Of a stretch of 64,000 bases of DNA, positions 893-35,880 are shown in pieces. The notes below the pieces were generated by a model. The model had not been told where the DNA came from and searched no databases. It was given only the letters and a program-made list of their open reading frames with translations. A program made the translations under genes and the position numbers. The DNA is from a candidate division WWE3 bacterium RAAC2_WWE3_1 (GTDB taxonomy: Bacteria; Patescibacteriota; WWE3; UBA101185; UBA10185): positions 529,680 through 593,679 of the forward strand of contig CP006914.1 of NCBI GenBank assembly GCA_000503835.1, given 5' to 3'. Numbering within the stretch: the first letter of the stretch is position 1; each line of letters opens with the position of its first letter.

Positions 893-1954
<1,062 letters not shown>

Positions 1955-2719: not shown

Positions 2720-5700
2720 ATGGAAATATCTGCCCAGAATAACAAAAAAAATTACTCAAAATCAGACTCAAACGTTTTTCGTAGTGAAGGATATGTTAAA
2801 GTATCTGAAGCCGCGAATTTATTAAGCGTTTCATCCTCTACCCTCCGTAGGTTCGAAGCTGAAGGTAAAATCACATCAAGAAGACTGGATAATAATTATA
2901 GGGTATACGATATATCAGAAGTCGCAAGATTCAAAAAAATACTTAATGAAGAAAAACAAACACGCAAAAAATCATACGTTACCGTTAACGACACACCGGT
3001 TTTTCAAAACAAAACTCCGGTCAAAGCCCACGGTTTTACCTGGCCCAAAATTAACGCCAGCTTCCCAAAAATAAATGAAACGTATAGTAACGTTTCGCAA
3101 AATTTTGAACAGCACTCGACTCTCAAAGCAGCTGCCAAATTTTTTAAGACTGCAAAAATAGCTGGTGTATCCTTCGCTGCAGTATTAATTCTAATAGGGC
3201 TGTCTGAAAATGTAAGATTTACAGATAATGTCATAGAGATACTTTCTTTCACTATGAGTAGACAGATCGAGACAGGAGAAAAAGGTTACGAAGTAATCGG
3301 ATTAACTTTAGGTTCCAAAGACAAAGTTACCAGCTATATCTACAACATTAATGTACCTGCTAACTTTAGACGAAACGTGAATATAGATGAAACTTTGCGG
3401 GTAACCGGGTTATCTTCGTTGTTAGGCGGCATAGAAACTCAAGATGCGGACGCAAACCTGGGTACGGGCACACTCACAACGGGCAGAATAGATATGACGG
3501 GCGAAGCATCCCTCAACAACCTTCTGGTCATCAATGATGTAACTGAAACTACACTGGAAGAATTCATCGATATCAATGGTGATGTGGTAGGAACCGGCTT
3601 AAACGATGTCAAAGTGGTCGGTCTCGGTGGAATCGAAGTAGGAGACCTTGACACCGATGACGGAAACATACTTATGATCGAAGGTGGAAGTTGGGCTTCT
3701 TTACCAACCAGCAGCATTACATCGCTTGGTACTATAACCACAGGCGTGTGGAACGGTACTCCTATCGCCCCGGGCTACGGCGGTACCGGACTTTCGTCAA
3801 TAACTGCCGGAAGTATTTTAATAGGGGGGTCAGGAAATACTATGTCAACTCTCGCCATCGGTTCCGCTAATCAGACGTTAATTTCAAGCGGTTCCGCCCC
3901 CGTCTGGACAAATTCCGATGCCTTTGTCTCTTCTTATGCGTGGCTGCTCACCGGTAATACAGGGACAGACAGCACTACGGATTTTATAGGGACTACGGAT
4001 AATACCGGACTTACTATCAGGACAAACGATGTCGAACGTGTGACTATAGCGGCTGACGGTAATGTGGGGATAGGAGGAACCGATCCTCAATTTTCTCTAC
4101 ATGTAGGAAATGGCAGCTCAAGCGCAGCCTGGATAGTAGGACAACAGGAAAGCGGTTACATAGAAGGCGATCTCGAGGTGGCGGGAACAATCTATGGTAC
4201 GTTTGTCGGACCCATAACAACTGTCGGGTATCAGCCTAATGCAGTGTTTTACTCTGACAGTGCCGGGACCATGACAACCGATAATACTCTGCTCTCTTTT
4301 AACGAAACCACGGCTGTGTTGTTGGTAAACGGAACTCTGAACACAAGTTTGTTTAAGATTGGTGGCACTTCAGTTACTTCAAGCGCGACTGAACTTAATA
4401 TCCTGGACGGGGCTTTAATATCAACAACAGAACTTAATCTTTTGGATGGACGCATCGGTACTCTTGTGGATTCAAGTAATGTGTCAAACTATGCTATTAC
4501 CTCAGTAGTGGCTGGATCGGGTTTAATCGGAGGAACAGGACCGGGGGCAACTACCCTTCATGTAGGGGTGGGAAACGGAATATCCATCGCCGCGGACAGC
4601 ATCGCCATAGATACAACAACAACAGGAGTAACCGCGGTATCCTCGTCCAATTCCGGACTTGAAGCATCCTCTGATGGACTTAGACTACTTGGGGGATGCG
4701 GATCTAACCAAATTCTTTCATGGGACGCAACCGGTCAGGTGTGGAAATGTGCATCAGTGTCAGGCATTGGCGGTATTACCGGAGCCGGCGCCTCAACACA
4801 GGTAGCTTTTTGGGACAGTGCGAGTTCTCTCACAGGGAATAACAGCCTTTGGTGGAACAATACAAGTACGAGACTTGGTATAGGAACCAGTGCTCCTCTA
4901 TACACACTTGATGTCAACGGAACAGCAAGGATAGGAAGTCTATCCGCAGGAAGCGGTAACTCAATAGTCCTTCAGAATGCAGGTGTACTTGAGACAAGGG
5001 ATGTTGATTCAAGGGTATGGGGAACTTCACTTGTTGACGGGACATCTTTAACCGCAAATTACCTGGCTAGAATATCTGACGCCAATACCCTAATAACCGG
5101 TATGGTCTATGACAACGGTTCATTTGTCGGAATAGGTACAACACAAGCCGGGTATCTTTTAAATATAGGGGGCTCTCTTAATACCTCGGCCCTCTTCATT
5201 GCAGGAAGTGCCGTAACATCAAGTGCCACAGAACTTAACATCCTTGATGGAGTTACCGCCACAACAAGTGAAATAAACATGCTAGCTGGAAGAACAGGAA
5301 CACTTGTTGACTCAAATAACGTGGGAAGTTATGCCGTAACTGCCATAACAGCAGGGTCAGGTCTAACAGGAGGAACAGGACCGGGAGCCACAACAATAAA
5401 TATTGGAGCCGGAAACGGATTAATAGTATCAGCTGACTCCATAGCAATAGACTCAGCAACAACCGGGTTAACTGCTGTAACATCATCTAACTCAGGTATA
5501 GAGGTAACAGCAGATGGAATAAGACTTTTAGGTGGGTGCTCACTTAACCAGGTTTTGGCTTGGGATAATACTTCACAAACATGGAAATGCTCCTCAGTCT
5601 CAGGTCTTGGAGGAGTAACAGGAACAGGAACCGATAACTACCTAGCCAGATGGGATGGAACTAGCGCTCTTCAAAATTCTTCTGTGTTTGCTGCCGATTC

Positions 5701-8700
5701 AGGTAATGTGGGAATCGGAACATCGGGTCCGGGATATAACCTGGATGTGGCGGGAAGCGCCAATGTATCAAACCTTTTTATCGCAGGAAACCTTGTATCC
5801 TCAAGTGCCACAGAACTAAATATACTTGACGGAGCACTAGTATCTACAGCCGAGATAAATCTTTTGGACGGAAGAACAGGTGTACTTTTAGACACAAGTA
5901 ATGTCTCGACCCAGCTTTCAACATGGGACCAACTGGCATCTGATGATCTGACAACCGCAACAGGGTTTTCCGGAGACGTGTCGGGTCCATATAACGATCT
6001 GCAGATACAAACAGGTGTTGTGGGTGCAAATGAACTTGCGGCAACAAGCGTATCGGCAGGAACATATGGCTCCACAAGCGGTGTCTCAACATTCACGGTA
6101 GACGCCGACGGAAGGTTAACTTCTGCCGGAAACACAACACTTAGCGGCGCCGGAATAACGGATAACACAATAGAGGAGGTTGATCTTGAGGTAACAAATG
6201 CGGGGGTAAACGGATACGTATTAACATATGACAATGCTACAGGCGGTTTCACCTGGGTATCCTCTGCCGTTATGGGTACAAACTACTGGCAGCGTATCGG
6301 TTCAAACCTTGTTCCTTTAACAGTAACAGACTATGTAACAACAAACGGAAGAATAGGTGCAGGCACAACTTCCCCCTCCTACACACTTGATGTCAACGGA
6401 ACAGCAAGGATAGGAAGTCTATCGGCAGGAAGCGGTAACTCAATAGTCCTTCAGAATGCAGGTGTACTTGAGACAAGGGATGTTGATTCAAGGGTATGGG
6501 GAACTTCACTTGTTGACGGAACGTCTTTAACTGCAAATTACCTAGCTAGAATATCTGACGCAAATACCCTAATAACCGGTATGGTCTATGACAACGGTTC
6601 ATTTGTCGGAATAGGTACTACCGGTAACTCAGGATACATACTAAATGTGGCGGGGAGTGCCAATGTATCAAACCTTTTCTTGGCAGGTACTCTTGTATCC
6701 TCAAGTGCCACAGAACTAAATATACTTGACGGAGCTACCCTTTCAACAACAGAGCTTAATCTTTTAACCGGAAGAACAGGAACACTGGTTGACTCAAATA
6801 ACGTGGGAAGTTATGCCGTAACTGCCATAACAGCAGGGTCAGGTCTAACAGGAGGAACAGGACCGGGAGCCACAACAATAAATATTGGAGCAGGTAGCGG
6901 TATCTCACTTGCCGCAGATTCAATAACCCTTGATACCGATACCACAGGTACAACCTCAGTCACATCAAATAACTCAGGTCTTGAGGTAACAGGTTCGGGT
7001 CTTAGACTTCTTGGGGGATGCTCGGATACACAGATACTTAAATGGAACTCAACCGCATCTGTCTGGTACTGTTCCTCAGATTCTACTGGTACCTCAGGTA
7101 CTGCAACCATAGCAGGATCGGGTCTTGCTACACAAATTGCCTTCTTCTCAGGTTCAACATCAATCAGTGGATCAAATAACCTATGGTGGGATAACACAGG
7201 TGGAAATCTTGGTATAGGAACATCAGGACCTGCAGCTAAACTCGAACTTGCCGGCTCCGCTGATACTGAACAATTCGTAATAAAAGCGAACGCTACACAA
7301 TCTAATACGAACCCTTTGATTCAGCTTCAATCATCGACCGGAACCGCTCTCTTAGATATCAGCACAGATAGTGTTGAAAACGTATTTATAGGCAGATTGG
7401 CAGGAAGTTCGAACACTGTGGGTGCAGGAAGCAGCGGCATGTACAACACCTTCATTGGCAGCGGCGCCGGTGATAATAATTCTGCCGGATACCAAAATAG
7501 CGTACTCGGCGCTTACGCCCTTTTCGGAAACACTTATGGAATAAACAACACCTCTATGGGCGTGTATTCACTTTTCTCAAATACTACCGGTAACGACAAC
7601 GTTTCGCTGGGTTTCAAAGCCGGGCAGTATAGCACGACCGGATCATACAACGTATTTTTAGGTACAAGCGCAGGATTTGGGGTCAACACCACACAAAGAG
7701 CTTTGTCTAGCTATAACGTAGCTATAGGTAACGAAGCCGGTTATAGCTTGTCGGCTAACTCCAGCAGTAACATATTCTTAGGCTACAGAGCAGGATATAA
7801 CGAGACGGGGTCTAATAAGCTGTATATAGATAATGGGTCAGCTCCCGGGGGGAGTGCCTTCATCTACGGAGATATGTCAAGTGACCTTTTAACCTTCAAC
7901 GCTAATGTGGGAATTGGAAAGACGTCCCCCACAGCATGGCTTGATATATCAGCTGCAACAACCTCTAAACCTTCGATAAGAGTAGCCTCAGGCACAGCTC
8001 CTTCCTCACCTGTTACAGGGGACATATATAATAATGGGACTTCCCTTTACTACTACAACGGAACTGCATGGCAAGATCTCGGAGCTACAGGTACATCAGG
8101 CACTGCAGCCATAGCAGGATCAGGTCTTGCAACTCAGGTTGCCTTCTTCTCAGGTTCCACATCAATTTCCGGGTCAAATAACCTATGGTGGGATTCCGGT
8201 AACTCAAGACTGGGAATCGGAACATCCGGTCCTGCCTACCCACTATCAGTGCTATCAACGGCACCTGATGTGGCCGACGGTCGCGTAGCTGACGTAGACG
8301 GAACGTTGACATCCTCAACAAACGATCAGCAGGGGTTTAAAACCTCCGTTACGGTCACTCCGGGCGCAAGCACCTCAAAAATCTACTCTGGCATGCAACT
8401 CTCGCTCTCGGGCAACAGTAATACACGTTTGACGAACGCCATTTTTAGAGGTGTAGAAGGTTATATCAGCTACAGCGGATCTTCGGGCATACTTGGCACA
8501 GGTATTGGGGGAAGATTCAGGGTAAATAATTCGTCAACGGGCACAATCACTAACGCCTATGATTTATACCTGGCAACCCCGACGAATACCGGAACGATCA
8601 CAAATACTTATGGTCTTTACATAGATTCTATGACTGCGGGCACCCAGCCGAACAAGGCTTTTGGAATATATCAGGCCGGTTCCGGTGACAGAAATTACTT

Positions 8701-11700
8701 CGCCGGTAATGTAGGTCTAGGAACAACTAACCCGGCAAGCATACTTCAGGTTGCAGGAAACATTCTACCCTCTGCAGACGATACCTACGATATTGGTTCC
8801 AGTGCATTAAGGTGGCGGGATGTGTATATAGGGCCTGCATCCTTACACATCGGTACCAATCAGAGCGAGGCAACCATAAAGTATCTGGTAGGCCAAAGCT
8901 CACTTGGCTTTGATCTTGATGCTAACGGTGTTTACGAGTTTGAAATGGGTGCAGACGGAAAATTCGGTATCGGCACAACCAACCCGAACTTCATGTTGGA
9001 CATTGCCGGAAGTGCAAGCGTAAACACCTTATTCCTTGGAGGTTCTGCGATAACGGCGACTGCCGCTGAACTTAACCGCCTATCAGGAGGATCCGGAAAT
9101 GTTGTCGATACAGGTAACGTGGGAAGTTATGCCGTAACTGCCATAACAGCAGGGTCAGGTCTAACAGGAGGAACAGGACCGGGAGCCACAACAATAAATA
9201 TTGGAGCAGGGAGTGGTATCTCACTTGCCGCAGATTCAATAACCCTTGATACCGATACCACAGGTACAACCTCAGTCACATCAAATAACTCAGGTCTTGA
9301 GGTAACAGGTTCGGGTCTTAGACTTCTTGGGGGATGCTCGGATACACAGATACTTAAATGGAACTCAACCGCATCTGTCTGGTACTGTTCCTCAGATTCT
9401 ACTGGTACCTCAGGTACTGCAACCATAGCAGGATCCGGTCTCGCAACTCAGGTTGCCTTCTTCTCAGGTTCAACATCAATTTCCGGGTCAAATAACCTAT
9501 GGTGGAACTCCACAGATTCAAGACTAGGGATTGGAACGTCCGCTCCTTTAACCTCACTCGATGTATCAGGAACAACCTGGCTAAGAGGCCTCTCGGCAAA
9601 TTCGGGACTATTCGTAAATGCATCAGGATCTATAGGAATCGGAACAACCAACCCGCAATATAATCTGCACGTAGTAGGAAACCTCGGGCTTACAGGAGAT
9701 TTTTATCTGCTTGGAGCACCTTCCTCACCTTCCACAACCGAAGGCACTATGTACTATGATACTGACGATGACCGGCTCAAAGTCTATGCTAACGGAAAAT
9801 GGCAATCAGACAGAACAACAGCAACCGTGATAGTTGCCGCATCAGATAGTAAAAATAAGGAAAAAGCCGATATTGTGGCTGACGGAACCAACGACGAAAC
9901 GGATATTGAGAATGCCGTTACCAACTACCTTCCGGCCACAGGAGGTAACGTTGTACTTCTTGACGGTACATACAATATAGGGGCGGACGGCATAGATATC
10001 ACCAAATCAAACGTTACCTTAACAGGTGCCGGTAATGCTACTGTCGTTAAAAGAGTTGCTGACTCGACAGCTGTCGACGGAACAATTACTTTAGGTGATG
10101 GGGGTACAACAGCTGTTACCAATGTCAAAATTACAGAACTCCAGGTCGACGGTCAAAAAAGTGCGTATTCCAGTCCTAATAACGTTGCGATATTTTTCAA
10201 CCAGCGGGTAACCCAGTCTCAAATTGAAGGCACCTACATTCACGATATTTATAGTTACGGCATTTACCTGAAAGGTACTACACAATCGGTCAGTGATAAT
10301 ACCATTCACAATAACACCATTATAAACAGCAGTAACCCAATCTATGTCGATGCCGGATCAACCAGCACCCGCGCTCACAACATTTCAATTACCAATAATA
10401 ATATTTCATCGGGCGTTGCAGGAATTTACATAAATTACGCTAAGTATTTTAAAGTTTCAGATAACAAATTTTCTAACTATCAGTATATTTTATCGGTGGA
10501 TAACTCCGAATATGGCGTTATTAGCGGAAACACCACTGACGGCAGCACTATTACAGGGGTTAATACAGCCATGGTTATATCCTTAGGTGCGAGCAATTAC
10601 AACACAATCGTTTCCAACTATATTTACGGCGGTTCGGGTATGGGTGGTTCGGCGGCAATATATGTCGACAATACAAGTACCGGGAACTATATAGCCGGTA
10701 ATACCTTGGGCAACAACAAGATAACCGATTCAGGTATCGGCACAATCATTCAGCAGGACGACCGATTCCTCGTAAACGGATATTTAAAAGCTACTTCCCT
10801 ATATCTTTCAGGTACGCAGGTAACCTCAAGTGCCACAGAACTAAATATACTTGACGGAGCTACCCTTTCCACAACAGAGCTTAATCTTTTAACCGGAAGA
10901 ACAGGAACACTTGTTGACTCAAATAACGTGGGAAGTTATGCCGTAACTGCCATAACAGCAGGGTCAGGTCTAACAGGAGGAACAGGACCGGGAGCCACAA
11001 CAATAAATATTGGAGCAGGGAGTGGTATCTCACTTGCCGCAGATTCAATAACTCTTGATACCGATACCACAGGTACAACCTCAGTCACATCAAATAACTC
11101 AGGTCTTGAGGTTGTGGCTGATGGCCTTCGCCTAATCGGAGGATGTACAGATACTCAAATTCTTAAATGGAATGCATCAACCTCCATGTGGTACTGCGCT
11201 GCTGATTCTACAGGAACTGCAGGTTCAGCCACAATCGCAGGCTCTGGTGTTGTAAACCAAGTCTCATTCTTCTCAGGCTCCACATCAATATCCGGTTCAA
11301 ATAATCTATGGTGGGACAATTCAAATACAAGACTAGGGATTGGAACATCGGGTCCTTTAACCGCTCTTGATGTATCCGGAACCACATGGCTTAGAGGTCT
11401 TTCAGCTAACTCGGGACTATTTGTAAACACCTCGGGATACGTCGGAATCGGAACAACCAACCCCACTGCCCCGCTAAGTGTTGGAACAGGTAGCGCCTTT
11501 GCGGTCAGTTCAACAGGAGCTGTAACATCAGGGAGCTGGAATGGCGCCGCAATAAGCGTTCCCTACGGAGGTACCGGATTGACATCAATTGCCGCGGGCT
11601 CCGTTCTTGCCGCCAATTCGGTTGACACGTTAAGTGTTATAACCTCAACATCCGGTCTTAAAGTACTACAAAATAGCGCGGGTACAACGTCGTGGGCGAC

Positions 11701-14700
11701 AACAACCGGTACCGGAAATGTGGTCTTTTCAGACTCTCCAGTACTAACAACTCAGGCCATGGTTCCTCTAATAGTCGGCGGATCATCGCCCACATCCGTC
11801 CTTACCCTTAAATCCACATCAGGAACCGGAACGACGGACGCCATCGTATTCCAGGTGGGAACAAACGGCGGTACAGAGGCCATGAGAATATTAAATAGCG
11901 GAAATATAGGGATTGGCACCACCTCCAACGCTTATAAACTATTCGTGGACGGATCGTTAAATGCTACTTCCCTGTATCTTTCGGGTTCTCAGGTAACATC
12001 AAGTGCCACAGAACTAAATATACTTGACGGAGCTACCCTTTCCACAACAGAGCTTAATCTTTTAACCGGAAGAAGCGGAACACTGCTTGATTCCGGTAAC
12101 GTGGGAACATACGCCACAACAGCAGTTACCGCAGGTTCAGGTCTATCGGGGGGTGGTACAACCGGCGCCCTAACCATTAATATCGGAGGCGGAAACGGAA
12201 TAACAATAAATGCTGATGATATAACGATAGATGCGACAACCGCTGGGACGACAACCGTCAAATCCAATAATTCCGGTCTTGAGGTGGTGTCAGACGGTCT
12301 CAGACTTCTTGGGGGGTGTGCGAACGGAGAAGTTTTAAAGTGGAATTCAAGTACTTCGGTTTGGTACTGTGCAGTTGACACAACAGGTTCCGGTACAGCT
12401 ACAATCGCAGGATCCGGAATAGCCGGACAATTAACCTTCTTCACCGGCTCCACGGCGGTATCCGGTTCAAATAACCTGTGGTGGGATAACACAGGCGGAA
12501 ATCTTGGAATAGGGACATCAGGACCTGTAGCTAAACTCGAACTTGCCGGCTCCGCTGATACTGAACAATTCGTAATAAAAGCGAACGCCACACAATCTAA
12601 TACGCAGCCACTCATTCAACTGCAATCCCCAACGGGCACTCCTCTGCTCTCCATCACTTCAGATAATGAAACGAACGCCTTCTTTGGATACAGAGCAGGT
12701 TCCGCTAATACATACGGATCTGCAACATCCGGTGGGGGCAACACATTCATAGGCTATCTTTCGGGATCTTCAAATAATGCAGGTTACCAAAATACATCTG
12801 TAGGTGGAGAGGCCTTGTCTAGAAACACGACAGGAGTCTATAATAGCGGACTTGGTTATCAATCACTTTACTCAAACACAACGGCAAACTATAACACCGC
12901 GGTTGGGTTTCAAGCACTTTACTCAAACACACTCGGGAGTGCTAACATCGGGGTTGGCTTTGGCGCAGGAGTATACAACCAAACGGGTACCGGAAATTTG
13001 TTTTTGGGACATAAGGCCGGGTACGGGGGAGCAGCAAGGACAGGCTCAGACTTCAACGCAGCGGTGGGTTACGAAGCGGGATACAGTCTATCCGCAAACT
13101 CCGATAGCAACATATTTTTAGGTTACAGAGCAGGATACAATGAAACAGGTTCTAATAACTTGTATATAGACAACACCTCATCTCCTGCAGATACAGCCTT
13201 TATTTATGGTGACATGGGCCTCGATCGATTAACCTTTAACGCTAATGTTGGAATAGGAAAAACATCCCCCACAGCGTGGCTTGATGTCGCAGCAGCAACA
13301 ACAGCTAAACCTTCCATAAGGGTAGCAACGGGTGCTGAACCTTCCTCCCCTGTAACCGGAGACATATATAACAATGGAACGTCCCTTTACTACTACAATG
13401 GAACAGCCTGGAAGGATCTTACGGCTACAGGAGCAGGTGGTGGTCTTGCTGGCTCAGGAATCGCCGGACAACTCACATTTTTCACCGGATCCACAGCAGT
13501 ATCCGGTTCAAACAATCTATGGTGGGATTCCGGTAACTCAAGACTGGGAATCGGAACATCCGCTCCTTTAACCTCAATCGATGTATCCGGAACCACGTGG
13601 CTTAGAGGTCTTTCGGCAAATTCGGGACTATTTGTAAACCAGTCAGGATATACCGGCATAGGTACAACAAGCCCAATCTCGAAACTCCAGGTGGAAGGAC
13701 CCACATGGCTTAGAGGCGGCACTGGTGTCGCCGGAGCAAAAGGTGTCTATATAGATGCCAACTCGAATCTCGGTATCGGAACAACAAATCCCGGGTATTT
13801 ACTCACCTTAAATACCACAACCGATCAGCACGCAATAGCTTTCCTCGAAGGAACAACAAACAGGGCGTTCTTCGGACTGGCCGCATCTGCAGGTCAGTTT
13901 GCTGCAGGTTCTCGTGATAACGACCTTATTTGGAGATCTGAAAGTGGCAGTAACCAGCTTTGGACCACAGACGGAGGTACTACCGCAATGGTGACCCTTA
14001 ACTCAGGGGGTAACCTGGGAATAGGAACAACAGCTCCTTTGGCATGGTTCGATGTTAAGGGCGCTACAACATCCGAGGCATCTATAAGAGTGAGAAGCGG
14101 GACCCAGCCTTCGGCGCCTGCAACGGGCGATATTTATAACGACGGCGACCAGCTCTTCTTCTACAACGGAACTGCATGGCAGGATCTTGGGGCGACGACC
14201 GCGGGGGGCGGCGGTATCGCAGGATCCGGAATAGCCGGACAATTAACCTTCTTCACCGGCTCCACGGCGGTATCCGGCTCAAACAACCTGTTCTGGGATA
14301 CTTCAAACTCAAGGCTGGGAATAGGAACATCCGCTCCTGCGTCACAACTCGCACTGCTTAGCACTGACACAACAAACGGTCAATTTAGAATAGGCTACGA
14401 TGCCTCTAACTATACTAAGTTCACAACCGACTCCGTCGGTAATCTGACCCTTAATAACAACGGCACCAACGTGGTCAAGTTCGGCGCTACCAACACCGAA
14501 TTCTATACACCTACAACCTTCTCGGCCGCAGGCGATGTGTCTATGGCCTACGACCTCATATTTACAAATGCGACAAGCTCTGAGCTCAGATCATACGGGC
14601 CTCTCAGCATAACGGCGGGAGAAACATACGGCAGCAGCAACCTCACGCTTAAGACCTATAACTCAGGTGACATTGTGGCTGACCTAACAGGAACAGGCAG

Positions 14701-16144
14701 GCTCAGACTAAACGGGGCGGATACCACACTGCTCTTCGACACAAAGACTGCCACCGATACCGACTACTGGATGGGTGTAATAGACGACGCCGGCGGCGAC
14801 GATGACGACATGTTCGCCATAGGAAAAGGTCTTTCCAACTCGTCAAATATTTACCTCTCGATAGCTTCCTCAGGATGGGTCGGCTTAGGATTGCCAGCTA
14901 CAAGTGCTCCTACAGCAACACTTGACGTAAACGGCGGAGCAAGATTTAGAGGAATCGGTTCCAGCGCTTATGTCGGAGCTGTGAATTATGCAACGGGCGG
15001 TGTATTAACTACAGCAACATCAGACGCCAGGCTCAAGACAAACGTTACAACAATAGACAATGCCCTCGACAAAGTAACAAGACTAAGAGGCGTCACATTT
15101 AACTGGCTCGACCCCAACGCACCTAAACGTATGACAGGTATGATCGCCCAGGAAGTTGCTGATGTTATGCCCGAGCTTGTGTTCCAAAACCCGAACGATG
15201 GTTACTATGGATTGTTCTACGGCGAAACAACAGGCTTATTAATTGAAGCCACAAAAGAGCTAAATACAAAACTACTTGCCTTAGAATCAGGCCTAACAAC
15301 CTACACAACAACCGCTGACGGAACCCTTAGTACAATAACTACAAGCACCGACAGCAACCTGACCAAACTTAACACCCTGGAAACTGACGTGACCGCCCTG
15401 CAAACAGAGGTCCTGTCCATAAAAGAGCTGTTAGCTCAGGCCGCTCCTCAAAGCTCACAAAGTAGCGCTACTGTAGCCACTACACCCGAAGGAATGCTAG
15501 CCGAGATGTACAAAGTCTTTGAAGACCTCAAAGCGTTCGTCGCGGCTCTCGGTCTATCAAACAATGGAAACGCCCTCGCGGTATCAACCGACCTTAACGT
15601 ACTTGGCGACACCACCTTATCTAACCTAACCGTAACCGGTGATATAAGTGCAGGATTAATGAAACTCGACACACTCAACAATGTGTTCGAGGTGGCCGGT
15701 CCTTCCTGCTACAACGAGCTTACCGGTACAACCAATACAACTCTCTGCACCGATCAAACAATGTACCTCCAGAAATCACTGGCAGGAAATGTTGACGTCC
15801 TCAACGGAGCCTTGGTTGTGGAACCCAACGGAAACGTTACCGTCAAAGGCACTTTACTGGCTCAGAAAGTGGAAACCACAGATATATCAACCGAAAACGT
15901 GACTATAAAAGCTGCTTCAAAGTCGGTCGGAAGCGGGACAATAACCTCAGGACAAACTCAAATTGTGATAGATAACACACTGATAAAGACAGGGTCGAAG
16001 GTATTCGTGACCGCCACATCCAGTACTAACGGGCAGGCTTTGATTGTTAAAGAAAAACTTGATGGGGTGTCGTTCACGGTAGCCGTCGATCGACCGGTCC
16101 CGGGAGATGTAGCCTTCGATTGGTGGATTGTAAATGTTGAATGA
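2720..16144 (+). CDS. Giant (4474 aa) membrane-anchored surface protein: N-terminal MerR/excisionase-type HTH, one TM helix, tandem phage-tail-fibre-like repeat modules, YadA-like repeats, a parallel beta-helix block and an internal peptidase-S74 intramolecular chaperone (self-cleaving) domain
   Basis: A 13.4-kb ORF with no stop codon. Approximate amino-acid positions of the named elements:
- aa 25-72, HTH: VKVSEAANLLSVSSSTLRRFEAEGKITSRRLDNNYRVYDISEV.
- aa 146-162, hydrophobic helix: IAGVSFAAVLILIGL.
- Seven or more copies of a ~150-aa module: TSSATELNILDGA..ELNLL.GRTGTLVDS.NV..YA.T...AGSGL.GGTGPGATT...G.G.GI...AD.I..D....G.T.V.S.NSGLE......GLRLLGGC.
- IGIGTT.P...LDV.G motifs typical of tail fibres.
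- nt 7380-7870 and 12640-13200: YadA-head-like N.A.G..A repeats.
- nt 10100-10760: beta-helix repeats (NNTI.NSS...I, ISITNNNISSG).
- nt 15020-15260: SDARLKTNVTTIDNALDKVTRLRGVTFNWLDPNAPKRMTGMIAQEVADVMPELV, matching the S74/CIMCD consensus of tail spikes and endosialidases. Confidence 0.85.
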   Translation: MEISAQNNKKNYSKSDSNVFRSEGYVKVSEAANLLSVSSSTLRRFEAEGKITSRRLDNNYRVYDISEVARFKKILNEEKQTRKKSYVTVNDTPVFQNKTPVKAHGFTWPKINASFPKINETYSNVSQNFEQHSTLKAAAKFFKTAKIAGVSFAAVLILIGLSENVRFTDNVIEILSFTMSRQIETGEKGYEVIGLTLGSKDKVTSYIYNINVPANFRRNVNIDETLRVTGLSSLLGGIETQDADANLGTGTLTTGRIDMTGEASLNNLLVINDVTETTLEEFIDINGDVVGTGLNDVKVVGLGGIEVGDLDTDDGNILMIEGGSWASLPTSSITSLGTITTGVWNGTPIAPGYGGTGLSSITAGSILIGGSGNTMSTLAIGSANQTLISSGSAPVWTNSDAFVSSYAWLLTGNTGTDSTTDFIGTTDNTGLTIRTNDVERVTIAADGNVGIGGTDPQFSLHVGNGSSSAAWIVGQQESGYIEGDLEVAGTIYGTFVGPITTVGYQPNAVFYSDSAGTMTTDNTLLSFNETTAVLLVNGTLNTSLFKIGGTSVTSSATELNILDGALISTTELNLLDGRIGTLVDSSNVSNYAITSVVAGSGLIGGTGPGATTLHVGVGNGISIAADSIAIDTTTTGVTAVSSSNSGLEASSDGLRLLGGCGSNQILSWDATGQVWKCASVSGIGGITGAGASTQVAFWDSASSLTGNNSLWWNNTSTRLGIGTSAPLYTLDVNGTARIGSLSAGSGNSIVLQNAGVLETRDVDSRVWGTSLVDGTSLTANYLARISDANTLITGMVYDNGSFVGIGTTQAGYLLNIGGSLNTSALFIAGSAVTSSATELNILDGVTATTSEINMLAGRTGTLVDSNNVGSYAVTAITAGSGLTGGTGPGATTINIGAGNGLIVSADSIAIDSATTGLTAVTSSNSGIEVTADGIRLLGGCSLNQVLAWDNTSQTWKCSSVSGLGGVTGTGTDNYLARWDGTSALQNSSVFAADSGNVGIGTSGPGYNLDVAGSANVSNLFIAGNLVSSSATELNILDGALVSTAEINLLDGRTGVLLDTSNVSTQLSTWDQLASDDLTTATGFSGDVSGPYNDLQIQTGVVGANELAATSVSAGTYGSTSGVSTFTVDADGRLTSAGNTTLSGAGITDNTIEEVDLEVTNAGVNGYVLTYDNATGGFTWVSSAVMGTNYWQRIGSNLVPLTVTDYVTTNGRIGAGTTSPSYTLDVNGTARIGSLSAGSGNSIVLQNAGVLETRDVDSRVWGTSLVDGTSLTANYLARISDANTLITGMVYDNGSFVGIGTTGNSGYILNVAGSANVSNLFLAGTLVSSSATELNILDGATLSTTELNLLTGRTGTLVDSNNVGSYAVTAITAGSGLTGGTGPGATTINIGAGSGISLAADSITLDTDTTGTTSVTSNNSGLEVTGSGLRLLGGCSDTQILKWNSTASVWYCSSDSTGTSGTATIAGSGLATQIAFFSGSTSISGSNNLWWDNTGGNLGIGTSGPAAKLELAGSADTEQFVIKANATQSNTNPLIQLQSSTGTALLDISTDSVENVFIGRLAGSSNTVGAGSSGMYNTFIGSGAGDNNSAGYQNSVLGAYALFGNTYGINNTSMGVYSLFSNTTGNDNVSLGFKAGQYSTTGSYNVFLGTSAGFGVNTTQRALSSYNVAIGNEAGYSLSANSSSNIFLGYRAGYNETGSNKLYIDNGSAPGGSAFIYGDMSSDLLTFNANVGIGKTSPTAWLDISAATTSKPSIRVASGTAPSSPVTGDIYNNGTSLYYYNGTAWQDLGATGTSGTAAIAGSGLATQVAFFSGSTSISGSNNLWWDSGNSRLGIGTSGPAYPLSVLSTAPDVADGRVADVDGTLTSSTNDQQGFKTSVTVTPGASTSKIYSGMQLSLSGNSNTRLTNAIFRGVEGYISYSGSSGILGTGIGGRFRVNNSSTGTITNAYDLYLATPTNTGTITNTYGLYIDSMTAGTQPNKAFGIYQAGSGDRNYFAGNVGLGTTNPASILQVAGNILPSADDTYDIGSSALRWRDVYIGPASLHIGTNQSEATIKYLVGQSSLGFDLDANGVYEFEMGADGKFGIGTTNPNFMLDIAGSASVNTLFLGGSAITATAAELNRLSGGSGNVVDTGNVGSYAVTAITAGSGLTGGTGPGATTINIGAGSGISLAADSITLDTDTTGTTSVTSNNSGLEVTGSGLRLLGGCSDTQILKWNSTASVWYCSSDSTGTSGTATIAGSGLATQVAFFSGSTSISGSNNLWWNSTDSRLGIGTSAPLTSLDVSGTTWLRGLSANSGLFVNASGSIGIGTTNPQYNLHVVGNLGLTGDFYLLGAPSSPSTTEGTMYYDTDDDRLKVYANGKWQSDRTTATVIVAASDSKNKEKADIVADGTNDETDIENAVTNYLPATGGNVVLLDGTYNIGADGIDITKSNVTLTGAGNATVVKRVADSTAVDGTITLGDGGTTAVTNVKITELQVDGQKSAYSSPNNVAIFFNQRVTQSQIEGTYIHDIYSYGIYLKGTTQSVSDNTIHNNTIINSSNPIYVDAGSTSTRAHNISITNNNISSGVAGIYINYAKYFKVSDNKFSNYQYILSVDNSEYGVISGNTTDGSTITGVNTAMVISLGASNYNTIVSNYIYGGSGMGGSAAIYVDNTSTGNYIAGNTLGNNKITDSGIGTIIQQDDRFLVNGYLKATSLYLSGTQVTSSATELNILDGATLSTTELNLLTGRTGTLVDSNNVGSYAVTAITAGSGLTGGTGPGATTINIGAGSGISLAADSITLDTDTTGTTSVTSNNSGLEVVADGLRLIGGCTDTQILKWNASTSMWYCAADSTGTAGSATIAGSGVVNQVSFFSGSTSISGSNNLWWDNSNTRLGIGTSGPLTALDVSGTTWLRGLSANSGLFVNTSGYVGIGTTNPTAPLSVGTGSAFAVSSTGAVTSGSWNGAAISVPYGGTGLTSIAAGSVLAANSVDTLSVITSTSGLKVLQNSAGTTSWATTTGTGNVVFSDSPVLTTQAMVPLIVGGSSPTSVLTLKSTSGTGTTDAIVFQVGTNGGTEAMRILNSGNIGIGTTSNAYKLFVDGSLNATSLYLSGSQVTSSATELNILDGATLSTTELNLLTGRSGTLLDSGNVGTYATTAVTAGSGLSGGGTTGALTINIGGGNGITINADDITIDATTAGTTTVKSNNSGLEVVSDGLRLLGGCANGEVLKWNSSTSVWYCAVDTTGSGTATIAGSGIAGQLTFFTGSTAVSGSNNLWWDNTGGNLGIGTSGPVAKLELAGSADTEQFVIKANATQSNTQPLIQLQSPTGTPLLSITSDNETNAFFGYRAGSANTYGSATSGGGNTFIGYLSGSSNNAGYQNTSVGGEALSRNTTGVYNSGLGYQSLYSNTTANYNTAVGFQALYSNTLGSANIGVGFGAGVYNQTGTGNLFLGHKAGYGGAARTGSDFNAAVGYEAGYSLSANSDSNIFLGYRAGYNETGSNNLYIDNTSSPADTAFIYGDMGLDRLTFNANVGIGKTSPTAWLDVAAATTAKPSIRVATGAEPSSPVTGDIYNNGTSLYYYNGTAWKDLTATGAGGGLAGSGIAGQLTFFTGSTAVSGSNNLWWDSGNSRLGIGTSAPLTSIDVSGTTWLRGLSANSGLFVNQSGYTGIGTTSPISKLQVEGPTWLRGGTGVAGAKGVYIDANSNLGIGTTNPGYLLTLNTTTDQHAIAFLEGTTNRAFFGLAASAGQFAAGSRDNDLIWRSESGSNQLWTTDGGTTAMVTLNSGGNLGIGTTAPLAWFDVKGATTSEASIRVRSGTQPSAPATGDIYNDGDQLFFYNGTAWQDLGATTAGGGGIAGSGIAGQLTFFTGSTAVSGSNNLFWDTSNSRLGIGTSAPASQLALLSTDTTNGQFRIGYDASNYTKFTTDSVGNLTLNNNGTNVVKFGATNTEFYTPTTFSAAGDVSMAYDLIFTNATSSELRSYGPLSITAGETYGSSNLTLKTYNSGDIVADLTGTGRLRLNGADTTLLFDTKTATDTDYWMGVIDDAGGDDDDMFAIGKGLSNSSNIYLSIASSGWVGLGLPATSAPTATLDVNGGARFRGIGSSAYVGAVNYATGGVLTTATSDARLKTNVTTIDNALDKVTRLRGVTFNWLDPNAPKRMTGMIAQEVADVMPELVFQNPNDGYYGLFYGETTGLLIEATKELNTKLLALESGLTTYTTTADGTLSTITTSTDSNLTKLNTLETDVTALQTEVLSIKELLAQAAPQSSQSSATVATTPEGMLAEMYKVFEDLKAFVAALGLSNNGNALAVSTDLNVLGDTTLSNLTVTGDISAGLMKLDTLNNVFEVAGPSCYNELTGTTNTTLCTDQTMYLQKSLAGNVDVLNGALVVEPNGNVTVKGTLLAQKVETTDISTENVTIKAASKSVGSGTITSGQTQIVIDNTLIKTGSKVFVTATSSTNGQALIVKEKLDGVSFTVAVDRPVPGDVAFDWWIVNVE
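6660..8230. repeat. Copy 1 of a ~1.6-kb segmental duplication inside the giant gene: repeat unit, AKLELAGSADTEQFVIKANATQSNT block, YadA-like repeats and a GDIYNNGTSLYYYNGTAW block
   Basis: The domain order and many sequence stretches recur at 11950-13570. For example, 7200-7340 is about 93% identical to 12490-12630. The protein segment NIFLGYRAGYNETGSN.LYIDN...FIYGDM..D.LTFNANVGIGKTSPTAWLD appears at both sites. Confidence 0.8.
11950..13570. repeat. Copy 2 of the ~1.6-kb segmental duplication inside the giant gene
   Basis: See copy 1 at 6660-8230. The modules are collinear and carry patches of near-identity at the DNA level. Confidence 0.8.
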
Positions 16145-16229: not shown

Positions 16230-19200
16230 ATGAAAGAGGGATTAAATATTAAAGAAAAAATGAAGAGGGTTCGCAGGAAAATAGTCGGTTTTGGCAAATT
16301 CTCCACACCCTATAGAAAACATGATGTTACTTCTATTTTTGAGGAACGCGAGAGGTCTAAAGACACAGGTAGTAGTATAAAAGCATTTTCAAGCAAAAAA
16401 CTTCAACTCCTATACATAAAAATTATCGCCTTCTTTACGGCTCGAAAACAGAATTGGAGGAATTTCTATACTCAAGAACTGCCTTTTTCAAGAATTTTGC
16501 GTTTTCTAAAGTCGCGCTACCCCACTTACAAAAAGTATCTTGTACCCGTCTCAGTTGGAATGCTTATAGTATTGCTTCCGGTTATCTGGCTGTCTATAAA
16601 AAATCCCGACAAAGTTCGGGCAGATTGGTTTGACGACAACTGGCACTATAGAAAAAAAATTACCATCACAAATAACGGGACGGCTGACGCTGATAAAAAA
16701 ATCCTGTTCGAAACCGACACCTCTGCTCTAATCTCCGGGTCTAAAATGCAAAACACCTGCGCTGACGCCAGGTTTACCGATGTCAATGGTCAGGTATTGA
16801 GATATTACATTGATGCGGCCACCGGAGCGTGCAACACGGTATCCACTGACTTTTATGTCCTTCTACCCACTATAAACGCCGGATCCACGGTTATTTACTT
16901 CTATTACGCAAATACCTATGTAGAGGCGGTTGCTGAAACAAGTCAGTTTTCGCAGGCAACGTTTAGCCCGGCCGGAAGCTCTACAGGCAACGAGTCTGTC
17001 GGCCCCGGACCGGCTGCATACTGGAAGTTTGATGAGGCTTACGATCAGAAGGAGAATACAAAGATTGAACAGGAACTGGAGATTATGACCGTCGGCGAGT
17101 ATTCAACAAGCAGTTATACCGCTTCAATCCCAATTGATATTACCTATAGTGCCGCCCAAAATCTCACAGACTACCAGATTCCTGTTACCTTTTCATATCA
17201 ATCGGGAATGAATACGGATTTTTCGGATATTAGATTTTACAACTCTGCCGGTACAAAACTTAATTATTGGATAGAGTCAAAAACGGACAGTACTACCGCA
17301 AGTGTATGGGTTAAGGTACCGCTAATCTCCGGCAGTACAACGACTACAATCTATCTAAGATACGGAAATTCCGGCTTTACATCCGAAAGCTCACTGGCCA
17401 ACACATTCACGAGCAACTCCGTTCAATTGTTGACAAGTAGATGCCCCAGTTCCAGCACGGCATGCTATTTTTCCGACTCGCATACAGAGTTCGACACTGT
17501 AGCCAGCAGTGTTCAGAACCTCACAAGCGGTTTTGCCGTCGACGGGAGCGGCAGTGTTACTGCGGTTAACAACTCATCAAATCCTTATGGAAGTTCAGAT
17601 AACTATTTTTCCCGATACCGTTTCCTTTTTGTCGCGGATACATCAGGAACTCATGGTTTTTTGGTCAACAGCGATGACGCGAGCGAGCTAAACCTCAGAG
17701 ATGCCATGGATACCGACACTACCCATACTGTACCGGCCTATTGGTATGGAGGCCACGGTAACGCGGGAACGTGCGCAACCAGCGGCACGACCGGTACCAG
17801 ATCCATAAACTCCGGTGAATCCGTTTGGCTGGATTACAGACAGACTGAGGTCGGAAGTGGACAACTGGCACAACTGTGCATCTCTGAGCCGGCCGGAAGC
17901 TATGCAGTGGTAAATACGACAAATTTTCCGGGACAGCTTTACGCTAGGAGTGTGATCACAACCGGATCGGAGCCATCGGTATCCGTTGGTGCTCCACAAC
18001 AAGGTGGATATACGTTCATGCCCACGAATAACTCCCTTGGAATTGTCGGTTATAACCCCTCTCTTTACAGCTCGGTAAGTTCAGTAAATCTGGAAATCGT
18101 TGCCAGTACGGATAACGGAACCACTTGGACTAAATATCGGACAACGGAATCGGGTAATAATCTTTCCTCCTCCACCTACACGGTCAGAGTAAAAGCAGGG
18201 GTCGGTTCGAACACACCACAAGCCGCGTTATATGACACTACAAGTGGCACATCTTTCCTACCGCTGAATTTTGGCACTACGTCGGACACCGAGGTTTCGA
18301 TCAAGAACGCACGGCTTATTATAAGACAGGAAAGTGGCGTCGGAATAACACAAACTGAGACGAAGACGGAGATGGGGAGTTATGAGGCCGGCACAGCAGC
18401 TACATATACTCAACAAACTGACAAAAAAATATACAACTACGATTCAACTAAGTATAACCCCGCCCCTACCAATTTTTTCGAAACTACAGCTAAGGTTACA
18501 AATGACAGTGTTGGGGTAGAACAGCAAATCCCTATAACAAATACGCCTCCTCTGACTACACGTACTACTTCCTACACCCCAACAGACAGTTCACTTGGTG
18601 TCGGCTATTGGGATGCAGACAAATACCCCGGAGGTACCGTTTATCTCGAGGTTGACCACTATAACTATGATTACTCGGATCCGTATATAGCCATATATAC
18701 TGTGTCAGGAACTTATGTGACCGAGTTTCAGGTCAGCCCCGCATCTCAAGGATATATACGATATAGAAGTCCGGCTTTAACTCTAACCGACGATACTGCG
18801 TACACAGTGCGATGGAAGGCTTCAAACGCAGCCCATCCCCAGACACTCTACGCCGCCCGTTTCATAGTTGTTCAGACCGATACCACAAAGATTACCGGAA
18901 CAGAGACACAGGTTGAAATCGGGGCCAATACAACCTCAACAGCAACCTCCTATACAAACTTGACTGACAAAAAAATATGGCGATACGACTCATCCAAATA
19001 CTCTCCCGCTCCAACTACCTATTTTGAAGCGGTGCTATCAAACGACACCGCTGGTCAGACCTCTTACGTAGCTCTTTATACGGATGGGGCAGCTTGTTCC
19101 TCCCAGGTAACGGGATCCGAGATTAGCGTTACGGGGACTACCTGGTCATGGGTAAGAAGTAACAGTATTTCCCTTTCAAGCGGAACCGACTATACGGTTT

Positions 19201-35792: not shown

Positions 35793-35880
35793 AATTAAAT
35801 GTAAACACTTGTTATATAAGGTGTCAACAGATGAATGTTGTTGCAATAGTGATTCCTATATGCACAAAAGCTTGGGGATT

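Follow-up and report, generated by a model that had tools for sequence, protein, structure and literature searches.

Within a 64,000-nucleotide stretch of DNA from a candidate division WWE3 bacterium (the window), one giant open reading frame (ORF), 2720..16144, appears to carry an intramolecular chaperone of the kind that ends phage tail fibres, followed by a long further sequence. We asked whether this domain is genuine and, if so, what becomes of the residues that lie beyond its self-cleavage site. In the frame of the ORF, nucleotides 15020-16144 encode SDARLKTNVTTIDNALDKV..., up to the stop codon. The genes around the ORF are cellular (rplJ/rplL, glycogen synthases, a sortase and four tRNAs), and the locus has an even GC content. 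The nearest genome loci belong to WWE3 MAGs, with 86-89% amino acid identity across the last 875 residues.

Table 1. Features of the giant ORF, with positions in the window and in the protein.
Feature	Nucleotides	Strand	Residues	Remarks
Giant ORF	2720..16144	+	4474 aa	Intact; predicted N-terminally anchored trimeric surface fibre of candidate division WWE3 (CPR)
MerR-type helix-turn-helix (HTH)	2798..2941	+	27-74	Predicted cytoplasmic; Pfam MerR 36.8 bits (cut-off 28.2), MerR_1 29.1 bits (cut-off 21.6)
Single transmembrane (TM) signal-anchor	3149..3214	+	~144-165	Preceded by Lys-rich segment
NosD-like right-handed beta-helix segment	10361..10777	+	2548-2686	Within fibre; Pfam NosD 32.4 bits (cut-off 23.6)
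Phage tail-fibre-like distal segment	14426..15019	+	3903-4100	Just upstream of S4101
Peptidase_S74 core	15020..15181	+	4101-4154	Pfam PF13884 match
Predicted scissile/catalytic S4101	15020-15022	+	4101	Aligned with catalytic Ser of solved homologues
Predicted general base K4106	15035-15037	+	4106	Aligned with catalytic Lys of solved homologues
Rest of canonical chaperone, including C-terminal helix	15182..15298	+		Helix 4167-4192; phage S74 proteins end here
Thr/Ser-rich linker, second coiled-coil helix, Ser/Gln-rich linker	15299..15484	+		Helix 4210-4241
Helix 3 and module A	15485..15913	+		Helix 3 4256-4276; module A ~4277-4398, beta-rich
Module B	15914..16141	+	4399-4474	~76-aa beta-sandwich ending ...FDWWIVNVE; AF2 pLDDT 86-96

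The original prediction took the protein to be membrane-anchored, and its start agrees: in a Kyte-Doolittle scan of the entire sequence with 19-residue windows, only the TM segment exceeds 1.6, and the Lys-rich stretch on its N-terminal side points to an N-in topology. Of 35 large proteins that share C-terminal modules A and B, 18 begin with the same HTH and TM, and this beginning is also found at five genome loci (L021, L024, L025, L030 and L056). A 224-residue "mini" protein comprising HTH, TM and module B is encoded in the same window. At the far end of the fibre, residues 3903-4193 match positions 1297-1559 of the 1,567-position profile PHROG 5668, 'tail fiber protein' (E 5e-30), and cleavage would make the C-terminus of the distal segment the end of the mature fibre.

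The Peptidase_S74 assignment of the original prediction withstood sequence and structural comparison, with the HMM match, the catalytic dyad and the predicted fold all in agreement. The core covers positions 1-57 of the 58 in PF13884. With a gathering cut-off of 22, it scores 65 bits (E 7e-18) in a 574-residue fragment and 61 bits in the full-length protein, much too high for a chance match. Solved S74/ICA domains that match a profile of the region include phage S16 gp37 (6f45, E 5e-20), MyRF (7dc3, 4e-12), 8jov and T5 pb1 (8hqz), with S4101, D4102, R4104 and K4106 occupying invariant columns. The motif S-[DS]-x-x-[LFYIMW]-K occurs once in the whole protein. By Foldseek, the AF2 model has its best structural match in the ICA domain of MyRF (7dc3; E 1.4e-3, probability 1.0, TM-target 0.56). 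It also matches 221 viral structures in BFVD at E<=1e-3, and the best 50 of these are mostly S74/ICA tail-fibre proteins. As judged from sequence and model together, the self-cleaving folding domain of the ORF is genuine and of the phage type, with its dyad intact.

Translation places the serine at residue 4101 of 4474, leaving 374 residues to the C-terminus, and the domain is indeed internal, as had been proposed. The canonical chaperone spans about 93 residues and ends near residue 4193 with a helix modelled at pLDDT ~85-90 (model residues 78-103); all 27 matching PHROG profiles reach their own end at query residues ~4183-4194, and roughly 280 residues follow. Among about 105 S74-bearing database matches, the distance from the serine to the protein end is usually 86-130 residues, with a subgroup at 290-402.

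The extra sequence has the coiled coil and the beta-rich, two-cysteine region that the original prediction had described. The coiled-coil helix corresponds to model residues 121-152, and no other part of the tail is as poorly conserved as the stretch that contains it. Module A displays a repeat-like LGDTTLSxLTVTGD motif and a conserved cysteine pair, C4330/C4343 (alignment A2). Modelled as a monomer, it reached a pLDDT of 50-80, and it is probably an obligate trimeric beta-structure. Together with helix 3, it is 40-57% identical to WWE3- and Saccharibacteria-labelled relatives. In its predicted fold, module B resembles tailspike C-terminal domains, with Foldseek matches to the C-terminal sandwiches of K64-1 S2-4 (9k4a), Pam1 (7eea), Sf6 (2vbm), phi297 (4ru5), K1 lyase (7w1c/d) and the R2 pyocin fibre (6cl6). 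Homologues score 26-33 bits with Pfam K1-lyase_C (PF24146, cut-off 27); the query itself had no Pfam match there. Identity to relatives falls from 40-58% in A and B to 31-50% in the S74 core and 10-33% in the linkers, making A and B the best-conserved part of the tail by sequence. As a cassette, the tail is inherited collinearly, with relatives aligning from 20-50 residues before S4101 and the fibre becoming mosaic farther upstream.

The original prediction implied that the extra sequence was peculiar to one protein, a view that the comparative data do not support. A profile of A and B matched 4,117 protein clusters. The modules almost always close the protein, which can be as long as 7,408 residues, and the carriers with an organism label are almost all CPR bacteria, from many lineages. 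Independent assemblies of WWE3 and other CPR bacteria contain comparable giant ORFs that end in this tail, running from 973 to more than 3,500 residues before the locus edge. A and B were not found in PHROGs, in a pattern scan of IMG/VR or in 50,697 phage genomes; the S74 part, by contrast, matched 891 phage records. On this sequence evidence, the ~280 residues are a conserved CPR-specific module.

This module is coupled to self-cleavage. Considering A+B proteins with at least 500 residues upstream, a self-cleaving chaperone domain, either S74 or G2-like, lies within 700 residues upstream at 38 of 43 genome loci and in 66 of 72 cluster representatives (about 90%); in the remaining ~10%, such a domain was not recognisable upstream. 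Where S74 is missing, its slot is mostly filled by a Peptidase_G2-like domain of the phi29 gp12 type, whose profile matches the gp12 D4 auto-chaperone. An invariant D-x-A-E, seen at the start of 76 of the 96 domains, aligns with phi29 DFAEYF, where the D4-only chain 3gqh begins (entry 3suc has DFAQYF at this place); only some members pass the Pfam cut-off. The two chaperones are unrelated to each other, and the location of A and B just downstream of either one argues that severance of the tail from the fibre is the selected function. Moreover, the serine and lysine stand five residues apart in every readable protein with S74 and the tail (18 genome loci and 42 cluster representatives, about 60 in all). 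Since the S1264A mutant of T5 pb1 can still be purified and crystallised as a trimer (PMC4690869), conservation of the serine points to selection for cleavage. By sequence, the coupling is near-obligate, and these comparisons strengthen the prediction that a large C-terminal piece is released.

We consider it reasonably likely that the ORF encodes a giant WWE3 surface fibre whose last 374 residues are an assembly cassette, cut off after trimerisation. A single TM helix would anchor the fibre in the cytoplasmic membrane, with the HTH on the cytoplasmic side and ~4,300 external residues built of phage tail-fibre-like repeats; the cassette would consist of the intact S74 chaperone, the second coiled coil, the Cys-pair module A and the beta-sandwich B. 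Three chains would join through the coiled coils, A and B, after which the S74 domain would template the triple beta-helix directly upstream, folding running from the C-terminus to the N-terminus. Correct trimer geometry would then activate S4101 and K4106 to cut the T4100-S4101 bond. The tail, three times 374 residues, would leave the mature fibre, whose new tip would be the phage-like segment ending at T4100. The 280-residue CPR tail would thus probably be lost together with the S74 domain, A and B having offered an added platform for trimerisation or docking. We infer trimerisation, cleavage, release and the platform role, with phage fibres as the model. Among these, T5 pb1 is a precedent both for release of the chaperone and for folding that begins at its coiled coil (PMC4690869); that a surface fibre of a bacterium can cleave itself through S74 has its precedent in Bd3182, with its S782A mutant (PMC10769870).

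Such strong conservation of A and B is unexpected for a part that is merely discarded, and they may act once the tail has been released, or quite apart from its release. The occurrence of B in the 224-residue protein, which has no fibre, likewise suggests some role apart from fibre assembly. The bond might therefore be cleaved with the tail as product rather than waste, a reading we hold to be unlikely. The trimeric S74-coiled coil-A-B piece could either stay as a removable cap held non-covalently on the fibre tip or be released to work elsewhere, as a lectin-like trimer or by docking to the envelope of its own cell or to B in the 224-residue protein. Conservation above that of the S74 core across many CPR lineages would fit, as would the likeness of B to tailspike sandwiches with a proposed role in carbohydrate binding or trimerisation (PMC10653864) and the position of a homologous B (hhalign probability 97.4%) next to the membrane in the conserved 224-residue MerR-HTH-TM protein. 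In Alteromonas phages, separately encoded chaperones are reported to stay on fibre tips as transient caps (PMC10579305). However, the sequence yields no ligand, binding site or partner, the T5 pb1 authors conclude that the chaperone must leave after cleavage (PMC4690869), and conservation across phyla speaks against B as a variable, target-specific adhesin.

That S74 acts in trimerisation and folding only, with no cleavage and with A and B as a permanent distal tip (an adhesin or lectin head), seems to us quite improbable. The terminal domains that B resembles are kept in the tailspikes (Sf6, K1 lyase, Pam1), Bdellovibrio fibres of the non-S74 type end in retained beta-sandwich tips (PMC10769870), and the A+B proteins with no detectable self-cleaving domain upstream would be accommodated. 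Yet the dyad is present in all ~60 S74-and-tail proteins examined, the alternative upstream domain is likewise self-cleaving and keeps its D-x-A-E, and receptor-binding tips are not conserved across phyla as A and B are. Least credible by far is that the region is a tail-fibre gene of a prophage or of phage origin, or a chimera created by mis-assembly. The S74 part and ~200 preceding residues reach ~51% identity with the ends of phage long tail fibres, and they match 27 PHROG families, nearly all annotated as tail proteins. However, the ORFs translated or searched included no phage structural or replication genes, the examined neighbours have housekeeping roles, and the HTH and TM anchor, the recurrence in independent assemblies and the even GC content all speak for a cellular surface protein.

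Our preferred reading, a cassette shed after assembly, can be set against known systems. The phage S74 chaperones (K1F endosialidase endoNF, the T5 L-shaped tail fibre pb1 and S16/T4-type gp37) belong to the same family and share the Ser-x4-Lys dyad, the preceding tail-fibre-like segment, the helix after the core and the predicted fold. In phages, however, the domain is terminal, whereas here it is followed by a coiled coil, A and B, unmatched in the phage collections searched, and is carried by a cellular membrane-anchored protein. The tailspike and depolymerase sandwiches (PF24146; Sf6, Pam1, K64-1 S2-4 and the CBM-like domain of KP34gp57), linked to trimerisation, sugar binding or both (PMC10653864), are like module B in their small fold and in their extreme C-terminal place in a trimeric fibre-like protein, with a borderline sequence relationship; they follow a catalytic beta-helix and are retained in the solved mature structures matched, whereas module B lies beyond a self-cleavage site. 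The D4 domains of the phi29 gp12 pre-neck appendage (Peptidase_G2) and Dpo31 correspond to the G2-like domain of S74-less A+B proteins, which is absent from the query and contributes comparative evidence only; in the matched phage proteins G2 is terminal (phi29 gp12, 854 residues; D4 chain, 163 residues).

The original suggestion that cleavage on a membrane-anchored protein would be out of the ordinary was overstated, given the precedents of MYRF (PMC3742443) and the Bdellovibrio MAT (mosaic adhesive trimeric) fibres (PMC10769870). MYRF and MrfA likewise hold an internal S74-type (ICA) domain in a membrane protein with a DNA-binding domain (PMC3742443, PMC8326128), and the C-terminal fragment set free by the ICA domain of MYRF runs for 534 residues from the catalytic serine, S578-D1111 (PMC3742443). 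In MYRF, the DNA-binding domain, of the unrelated Ndt80 type, lies on the same side of the membrane as the ICA domain, which precedes the TM, and cleavage frees a transcription factor; the MerR-type HTH of the query lies across the membrane from S74 and ~3,900 residues away, so S74 cleavage cannot release it. In Bdellovibrio bacteriovorus, a bacterium that attaches to other bacteria, thirteen cell-surface fibres end in S74 and self-cleavage was shown for one, Bd3182, at S782, blocked by S782A (PMC10769870). This S74 subgroup of MAT fibres is also cellular, surface-displayed and built of phage-like beta-helix repeats (PMC10769870), and fibre-repeat profiles from relatives of the query match the MAT structures 8ond and 8oml. 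MAT proteins are ~1,000 residues long, begin with a signal peptide and a conserved ~130-residue beta-rich domain and have S74 last (PMC10769870), whereas the 4,474-residue query begins with a MerR-type HTH and TM and continues beyond S74 into A and B. In MAT fibres beta-sandwich tips replace S74; in the query, S74 and a beta-sandwich stand in tandem.

The tail of the giant, the 4,474-residue product of ORF 2720..16144, opens with what is, as judged by HMM score, catalytic dyad and predicted fold, which agree, a bona fide member of the Peptidase_S74/ICA family. Residues 4101-4154 matched Pfam PF13884 (Peptidase_S74) over profile positions 1-57 of 58 with 61-65 bits (E 1e-16 to 7e-18), well over the gathering cut-off of 22 bits, so that the original prediction of an internally placed S74 domain is upheld; its description of the sequence was likewise right in every checkable detail, including a coiled coil and two cysteines (C4330 and C4343). 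Residue S4101 is the first of the Pfam match and forms, with K4106 five residues further on, the dyad S4101-D-A-R-L-K4106, which fits S-D-x-x-x-K. In an alignment of the S74 region (A3), the columns of S4101, D4102, R4104 and K4106 are invariant, and no second S-[DS]-x-x-[LFYIMW]-K motif was found anywhere in the giant. A profile of this region, built from the giant and 14 database homologues, matched the solved S74/ICA domains of S16 gp37 (6f45), MyRF (7dc3), 8jov and T5 pb1 (8hqz), with the dyad region aligning with SDRRIK in 6f45, (A)DLRAK in the 7dc3 chain and SGIEYK in T5 pb1. By Foldseek, the first part of an AlphaFold2 model resembled the MyRF ICA domain 7dc3 (E 1.4e-3, probability 1.0) and the endoNF chaperone 3gw6, and the best 50 of 221 viral matches at E ≤ 1e-3 were mainly S74/ICA tail-fibre proteins.

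The model, a monomer of residues 4090-4474 computed from a 34-sequence alignment (mean pLDDT 75), resolves the tail into an S74 core, three helices and two terminal modules, A and B, together termed A+B (see table). In classical phage CIMCDs the chaperone closes the polypeptide about 90-150 aa past the serine, whereas 374 aa follow it in the giant. Because all 27 of 27 matching PHROG families stop at their own profile end near giant residues 4183-4194, we assign ~93 aa to the canonical chaperone and ~280 aa to an extension. Module B resembles the C-terminal sandwiches of tailspikes, depolymerases and a pyocin fibre (Foldseek: 9k4a, 7eea, 4ru5, 4y9v, 2vbm, 7w1c/d, 6cl6), with probabilities of 0.90-1.0 but E-values of 0.15-0.48 for 7w1c/7w1d. 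The giant itself had no match to Pfam K1-lyase_C (PF24146) at E ≤ 0.1; among its tail homologues, P0005, P0006 and P0043 reached 28-33 bits, above the cut-off of 27, and P0003 stayed just below it at 26.3 bits. The opposite strand of the tail region holds no meaningful ORF (longest 83 aa), and no promoter-like site was found there. A sortase-substrate reading was rejected, as the giant, which ends in ...FDWWIVNVE, has neither an LPXTG motif nor a C-terminal transmembrane segment.

Coordinates of the features discussed, in nucleotides of the window or residues (aa) of the giant
Feature	Position	Strand	Description
Divergent neighbour of the giant gene	893-1897	-	334 aa, signal-peptide-like start, hydrophobic C-terminal helices
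MerR-type HTH + TM	2798-3214 (HTH aa 27-74)	+	HTH by Pfam, above cut-offs
Peptidase_S74 + tail	15020-16144	+	final 374 codons and stop of the 13.4-kb ORF 2720..16144
S74 core			predicted (AF2), pLDDT ~90
Chaperone helix	aa 4167-4192		predicted (AF2)
Second long helix	aa 4210-4241		predicted (AF2), after a Thr/Ser linker
Third helix	aa 4256-4276		predicted (AF2), after a low-complexity linker
Module A	aa ~4277-4398		beta-rich, poorly modelled (AF2), Cys pair C4330/C4343
Module B	aa 4399-4474		beta-sandwich, confidently modelled (AF2), pLDDT 86-96
Second giant ORF	16230-26504	+	3424 aa, 85 bp downstream of the first giant
HTH_17/MerR-like protein	34884-35846	-	HTH at the N-terminus (37 bits), then an acidic low-complexity linker and a C-terminal domain of unknown function
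Mini protein	53690-54364	+	224 aa; MerR_1-like HTH, one TM, ~70-aa C-terminal domain homologous to module B
Gene after the mini protein	54447-56690		747 aa; long hydrophobic stretches, C-terminal TPR repeats

At the other end of the giant, the HTH is followed by a lone hydrophobic segment at aa ~144-165. Since a Lys-rich stretch precedes this single segment, the predicted topology puts the HTH on the inner side of the membrane and about 4,300 residues on the outer. NCBIfam gave sub-threshold HTH matches only. The same start, a MerR-type HTH and then a TM segment, opens 18 of 35 other A+B proteins that are 1,500 aa or longer (maximum 7,408 aa); several of the remaining 17 visibly start mid-sequence, without a start methionine. 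Examples of this start are genome loci L021, L024, L025, L030 and L056 and database proteins P0144, P0151, P0155, P0157, P0249, P0258 and others. The predicted extracellular part is rich in Gly, Thr and Ser and contains six Cys pairs and more than 20 recurring GxGT motifs, a type known from Bdellovibrio MAT fibre structures. A long repeat unit, SSATELNILDG...LRLLGGC...W.C, recurs about six times in residues 554-3217, and the two Cys of every copy are spaced exactly 17 residues apart; no tandem repeats were detected in the gene at the DNA level. Pfam searches with 600-aa slices of the fibre returned NosD (beta-helix) and S74 and nothing else, and phmmer with the whole giant against PDB sequences gave nothing at E ≤ 0.01. 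The ~200 residues preceding S4101 align with the C-termini of phage tail-fibre families (PHROG 5668, E 5e-30).

The window is cellular DNA and not phage, with an even GC content of ~45% and genes for rplJ/rplL, glycogen synthases, a sortase, DprA and four tRNAs. The second giant ORF has a hydrophobic segment at its N-terminus, DUF2341 domains (Pfam, 90 bits), many LamG/concanavalin-like repeats recognised by eye and an internal duplication, nearly identical, that spans more than 200 residues; together, the two giant genes resemble a surface-protein operon.

Among about 105 database matches of the S74 domain, the distance from the serine to the end of the protein is mostly 86-130 aa and, in a subgroup, 290-402 aa. 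The A+B profile, searched against 1.84 billion cluster representatives, matched 4,117 at E ≤ 1e-3, 1,848 at ≤ 1e-10 and 194 at ≤ 1e-30, and in 115 of the best 140 of the 4,117 (protein length up to 7,408 aa), A+B lies at most 5 residues from the C-terminus. A genome scan with A+B yielded 72 loci, almost all CPR by record title, spanning WWE3, Saccharibacteria, Levy-, Davies-, Woese-, Gottesman- and Moranbacteria and Parcubacteria. Nine loci with CPR-type A+B tails (L015, L019, L026, L030, L033, L040, L053, L054, L071) come from MAGs labelled 'uncultured Gammaproteobacteria' or 'Bdellovibrionales', one of which, L030, combines an HTH-TM start with S74 and A+B; either the module reaches beyond CPR or the automated taxonomic labels are wrong. 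A+B alone had no match in PHROGs, and it was found neither by a pattern scan of IMG/VR nor by tblastn in 50,697 phage genomes, on which account the reading of the whole tail as a phage cassette was dropped; the S74 segment, by contrast, matches 891 phage records.

Genome loci closest to the giant come from MAGs of candidate division WWE3, with 86-89% amino-acid identity across the last 875 aa, which places the source organism among the CPR (Patescibacteria). Compared with six diverged relatives, all from WWE3- or Saccharibacteria-labelled MAGs, identity is 40-58% in modules A and B, 31-50% in the S74 core and 10-33% in the linkers and second coiled coil. Collinear similarity starts just 20-50 residues ahead of S4101 and extends to the stop, while the upstream fibre is mosaic; the tail thus behaves as an exchangeable yet strongly constrained cassette.

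A+B proteins that lack S74 had suggested that A+B is a permanent tip, an inference reversed by the domain found in its place. In these proteins, a conserved domain of ~150 aa, opening with D-x-A-E and followed by a coiled coil, occupies the S74 slot 100-300 aa upstream of the A+B match (L005, L006, L013, L017, L021, L024, L025, L029, L034, L068); in L006, a Pfam Phage_depo_C sandwich also lies just upstream. Pfam identifies the domain, above threshold in some members, as Peptidase_G2 ("IMC autoproteolytic cleavage domain"). A profile built from ten of these G2-like domains matched the pre-neck appendage protein gp12 of phi29, its invariant D and E aligning with phi29 DFAEYF, which begins at the first residue of the D4-only chain 3gqh and at residue 692 of the full-length chain; PDB entry 3suc has DFAQYF where the phi29 chain has DFAEYF. 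The D4 domain of Dpo31, a chaperone (PMC13317679), was likewise matched. The D-x-A-E motif is present at 76 of 96 G2-like domain starts. Where at least 500 residues are available upstream, S74, the G2-like domain or both lie within 700 residues ahead of A+B in 38 of 43 genome-locus ORFs and 66 of 72 representatives, and every readable S74 copy in an S74 + A+B architecture has Ser and Lys at the correct spacing. Two unrelated self-cleaving chaperones are thus interchangeable ahead of one conserved tail; most simply read, severing the tail from the fibre is the function under selection. The beta-barrel body of the G2-like profile also matches the divergent neighbour of the giant gene (E 2.5e-24), a protein that does not carry D-x-A-E and has no Pfam match.

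S74 chaperones are established to trimerise via a C-terminal coiled coil and to keep the upstream chains together during triple beta-helix formation; cleavage follows only once a residue of a neighbouring chain signals the correct fold, and the chaperone is then released (T5 pb1, PMC4690869). In Bd3182, self-cleavage is abolished by S782A (PMC10769870). By our proposal, the giant's chains would be exported N-terminus first and stay tethered by the TM helix while the C-terminal cassettes of three chains come together, and fibre folding would progress from the C-terminus towards the N-terminus. S4101 and K4106 would then cut the T4100-S4101 bond, with ...GGVLTTAT before the predicted cut and SDARLKTNVTTIDNALDK (SDARLK...) as the new N-terminus. 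A 3 x 374-residue tail would depart, leaving the phage-like segment ending at T4100 as the mature fibre tip. The predicted self-cleavage and tail release are well supported but unproven. The least certain part is the role of A+B, for which we favour an additional trimerisation or docking platform for unusually long chains. A serious rival, given how well A+B is conserved, is that it has a function after cleavage, as a cap, a lectin or an envelope-docking module.

A homologue of module B occurs in the mini protein, whose C-terminal domain matches it by hmmsearch (E 8e-10) and hhalign (97.4%, E 1e-11). The mini protein has 361 database relatives at E ≤ 1e-3, of which the best 120 are all 208-266 aa long, with WWE3 or Patescibacteria as the few organism labels among them; two motifs, FGxGDPYNRLRYYTK and ...F(N/S/D)WW, are near-invariant. 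An hhalign comparison of the giant's own N-terminus with the mini-protein family was negative, and the giant's HTH is thus assigned to another MerR subtype. The mini-type HTH is shared by some giants only, such as that of WWE3 locus L056, which combines it with a B-type end. With the product of 34884-35846, the giant and the mini protein bring the MerR/excisionase-type HTH proteins in the 64-kb window to three. We regard as improbable, and put forward as speculation, the broader idea that giants of the order HTH-TM-fibre-[S74 or G2]-coiled coil-A-B and small HTH-TM-B proteins form one CPR-wide surface system, in which tail self-cleavage would be an assembly or contact checkpoint read at the membrane. 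One possibility is that the A+B trimer, once severed, or a B ectodomain docks to the envelope or the mini protein and thereby influences the membrane-tethered MerR-type HTH. If true, the system would parallel, in bacteria, ToxR- or MYRF-style transcription control from the membrane and couple it to a phage-derived fibre for host attachment.

To our knowledge, the molecules by which CPR bacteria attach are largely unknown. All cultivated members live attached to other microbes (PMC11623550). The locus indicates that a widespread class of the largest CPR genes, undescribed in the open-access literature searched, encodes phage-like fibres with a defined and testable predicted maturation step, and the two unrelated chaperones in one slot amount to a natural experiment pointing to cleavage as the essential event. 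A+B, unannotated save for the borderline Pfam match, is marked as a target for structural and binding studies, and the cassette (aa ~3900-4474) is small enough to express. The significance would grow if the HTH/B connection is functional. Should the membrane-tethered HTH prove to work, these proteins would connect fibres on the surface with gene regulation in organisms for which very few regulators are known.

Among open-access papers and preprints, we found none linking S74 or intramolecular chaperones with CPR lineages, which is weak evidence of novelty. The S74 chaperone itself is known; what is new here is its extension by a conserved CPR-specific module. The original prediction had regarded release of a large C-terminal piece as unusual on a membrane-anchored protein; MYRF, with its C-terminal fragment S578-D1111, and the MAT fibres contradict this view. 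The HTH-TM topology of the giant is ToxR-like, but with a giant extracellular part. In MYRF, the order is DNA-binding domain, ICA domain and TM, and ICA cleavage frees the DNA-binding part; in the giant, HTH, TM and fibre precede S74, no TM follows it, and the HTH and S74 lie on opposite sides of the membrane, so that the logic is not MYRF-like. The MAT fibres of Bdellovibrio begin with a signal peptide and a conserved ~130-aa beta-rich N-terminal domain, where the giant has a MerR HTH and TM; beyond a difference in size, they end in either S74 or an alternative tip domain, whereas the giant carries S74 and then, in tandem, the further conserved domains A+B with the sandwich of module B.
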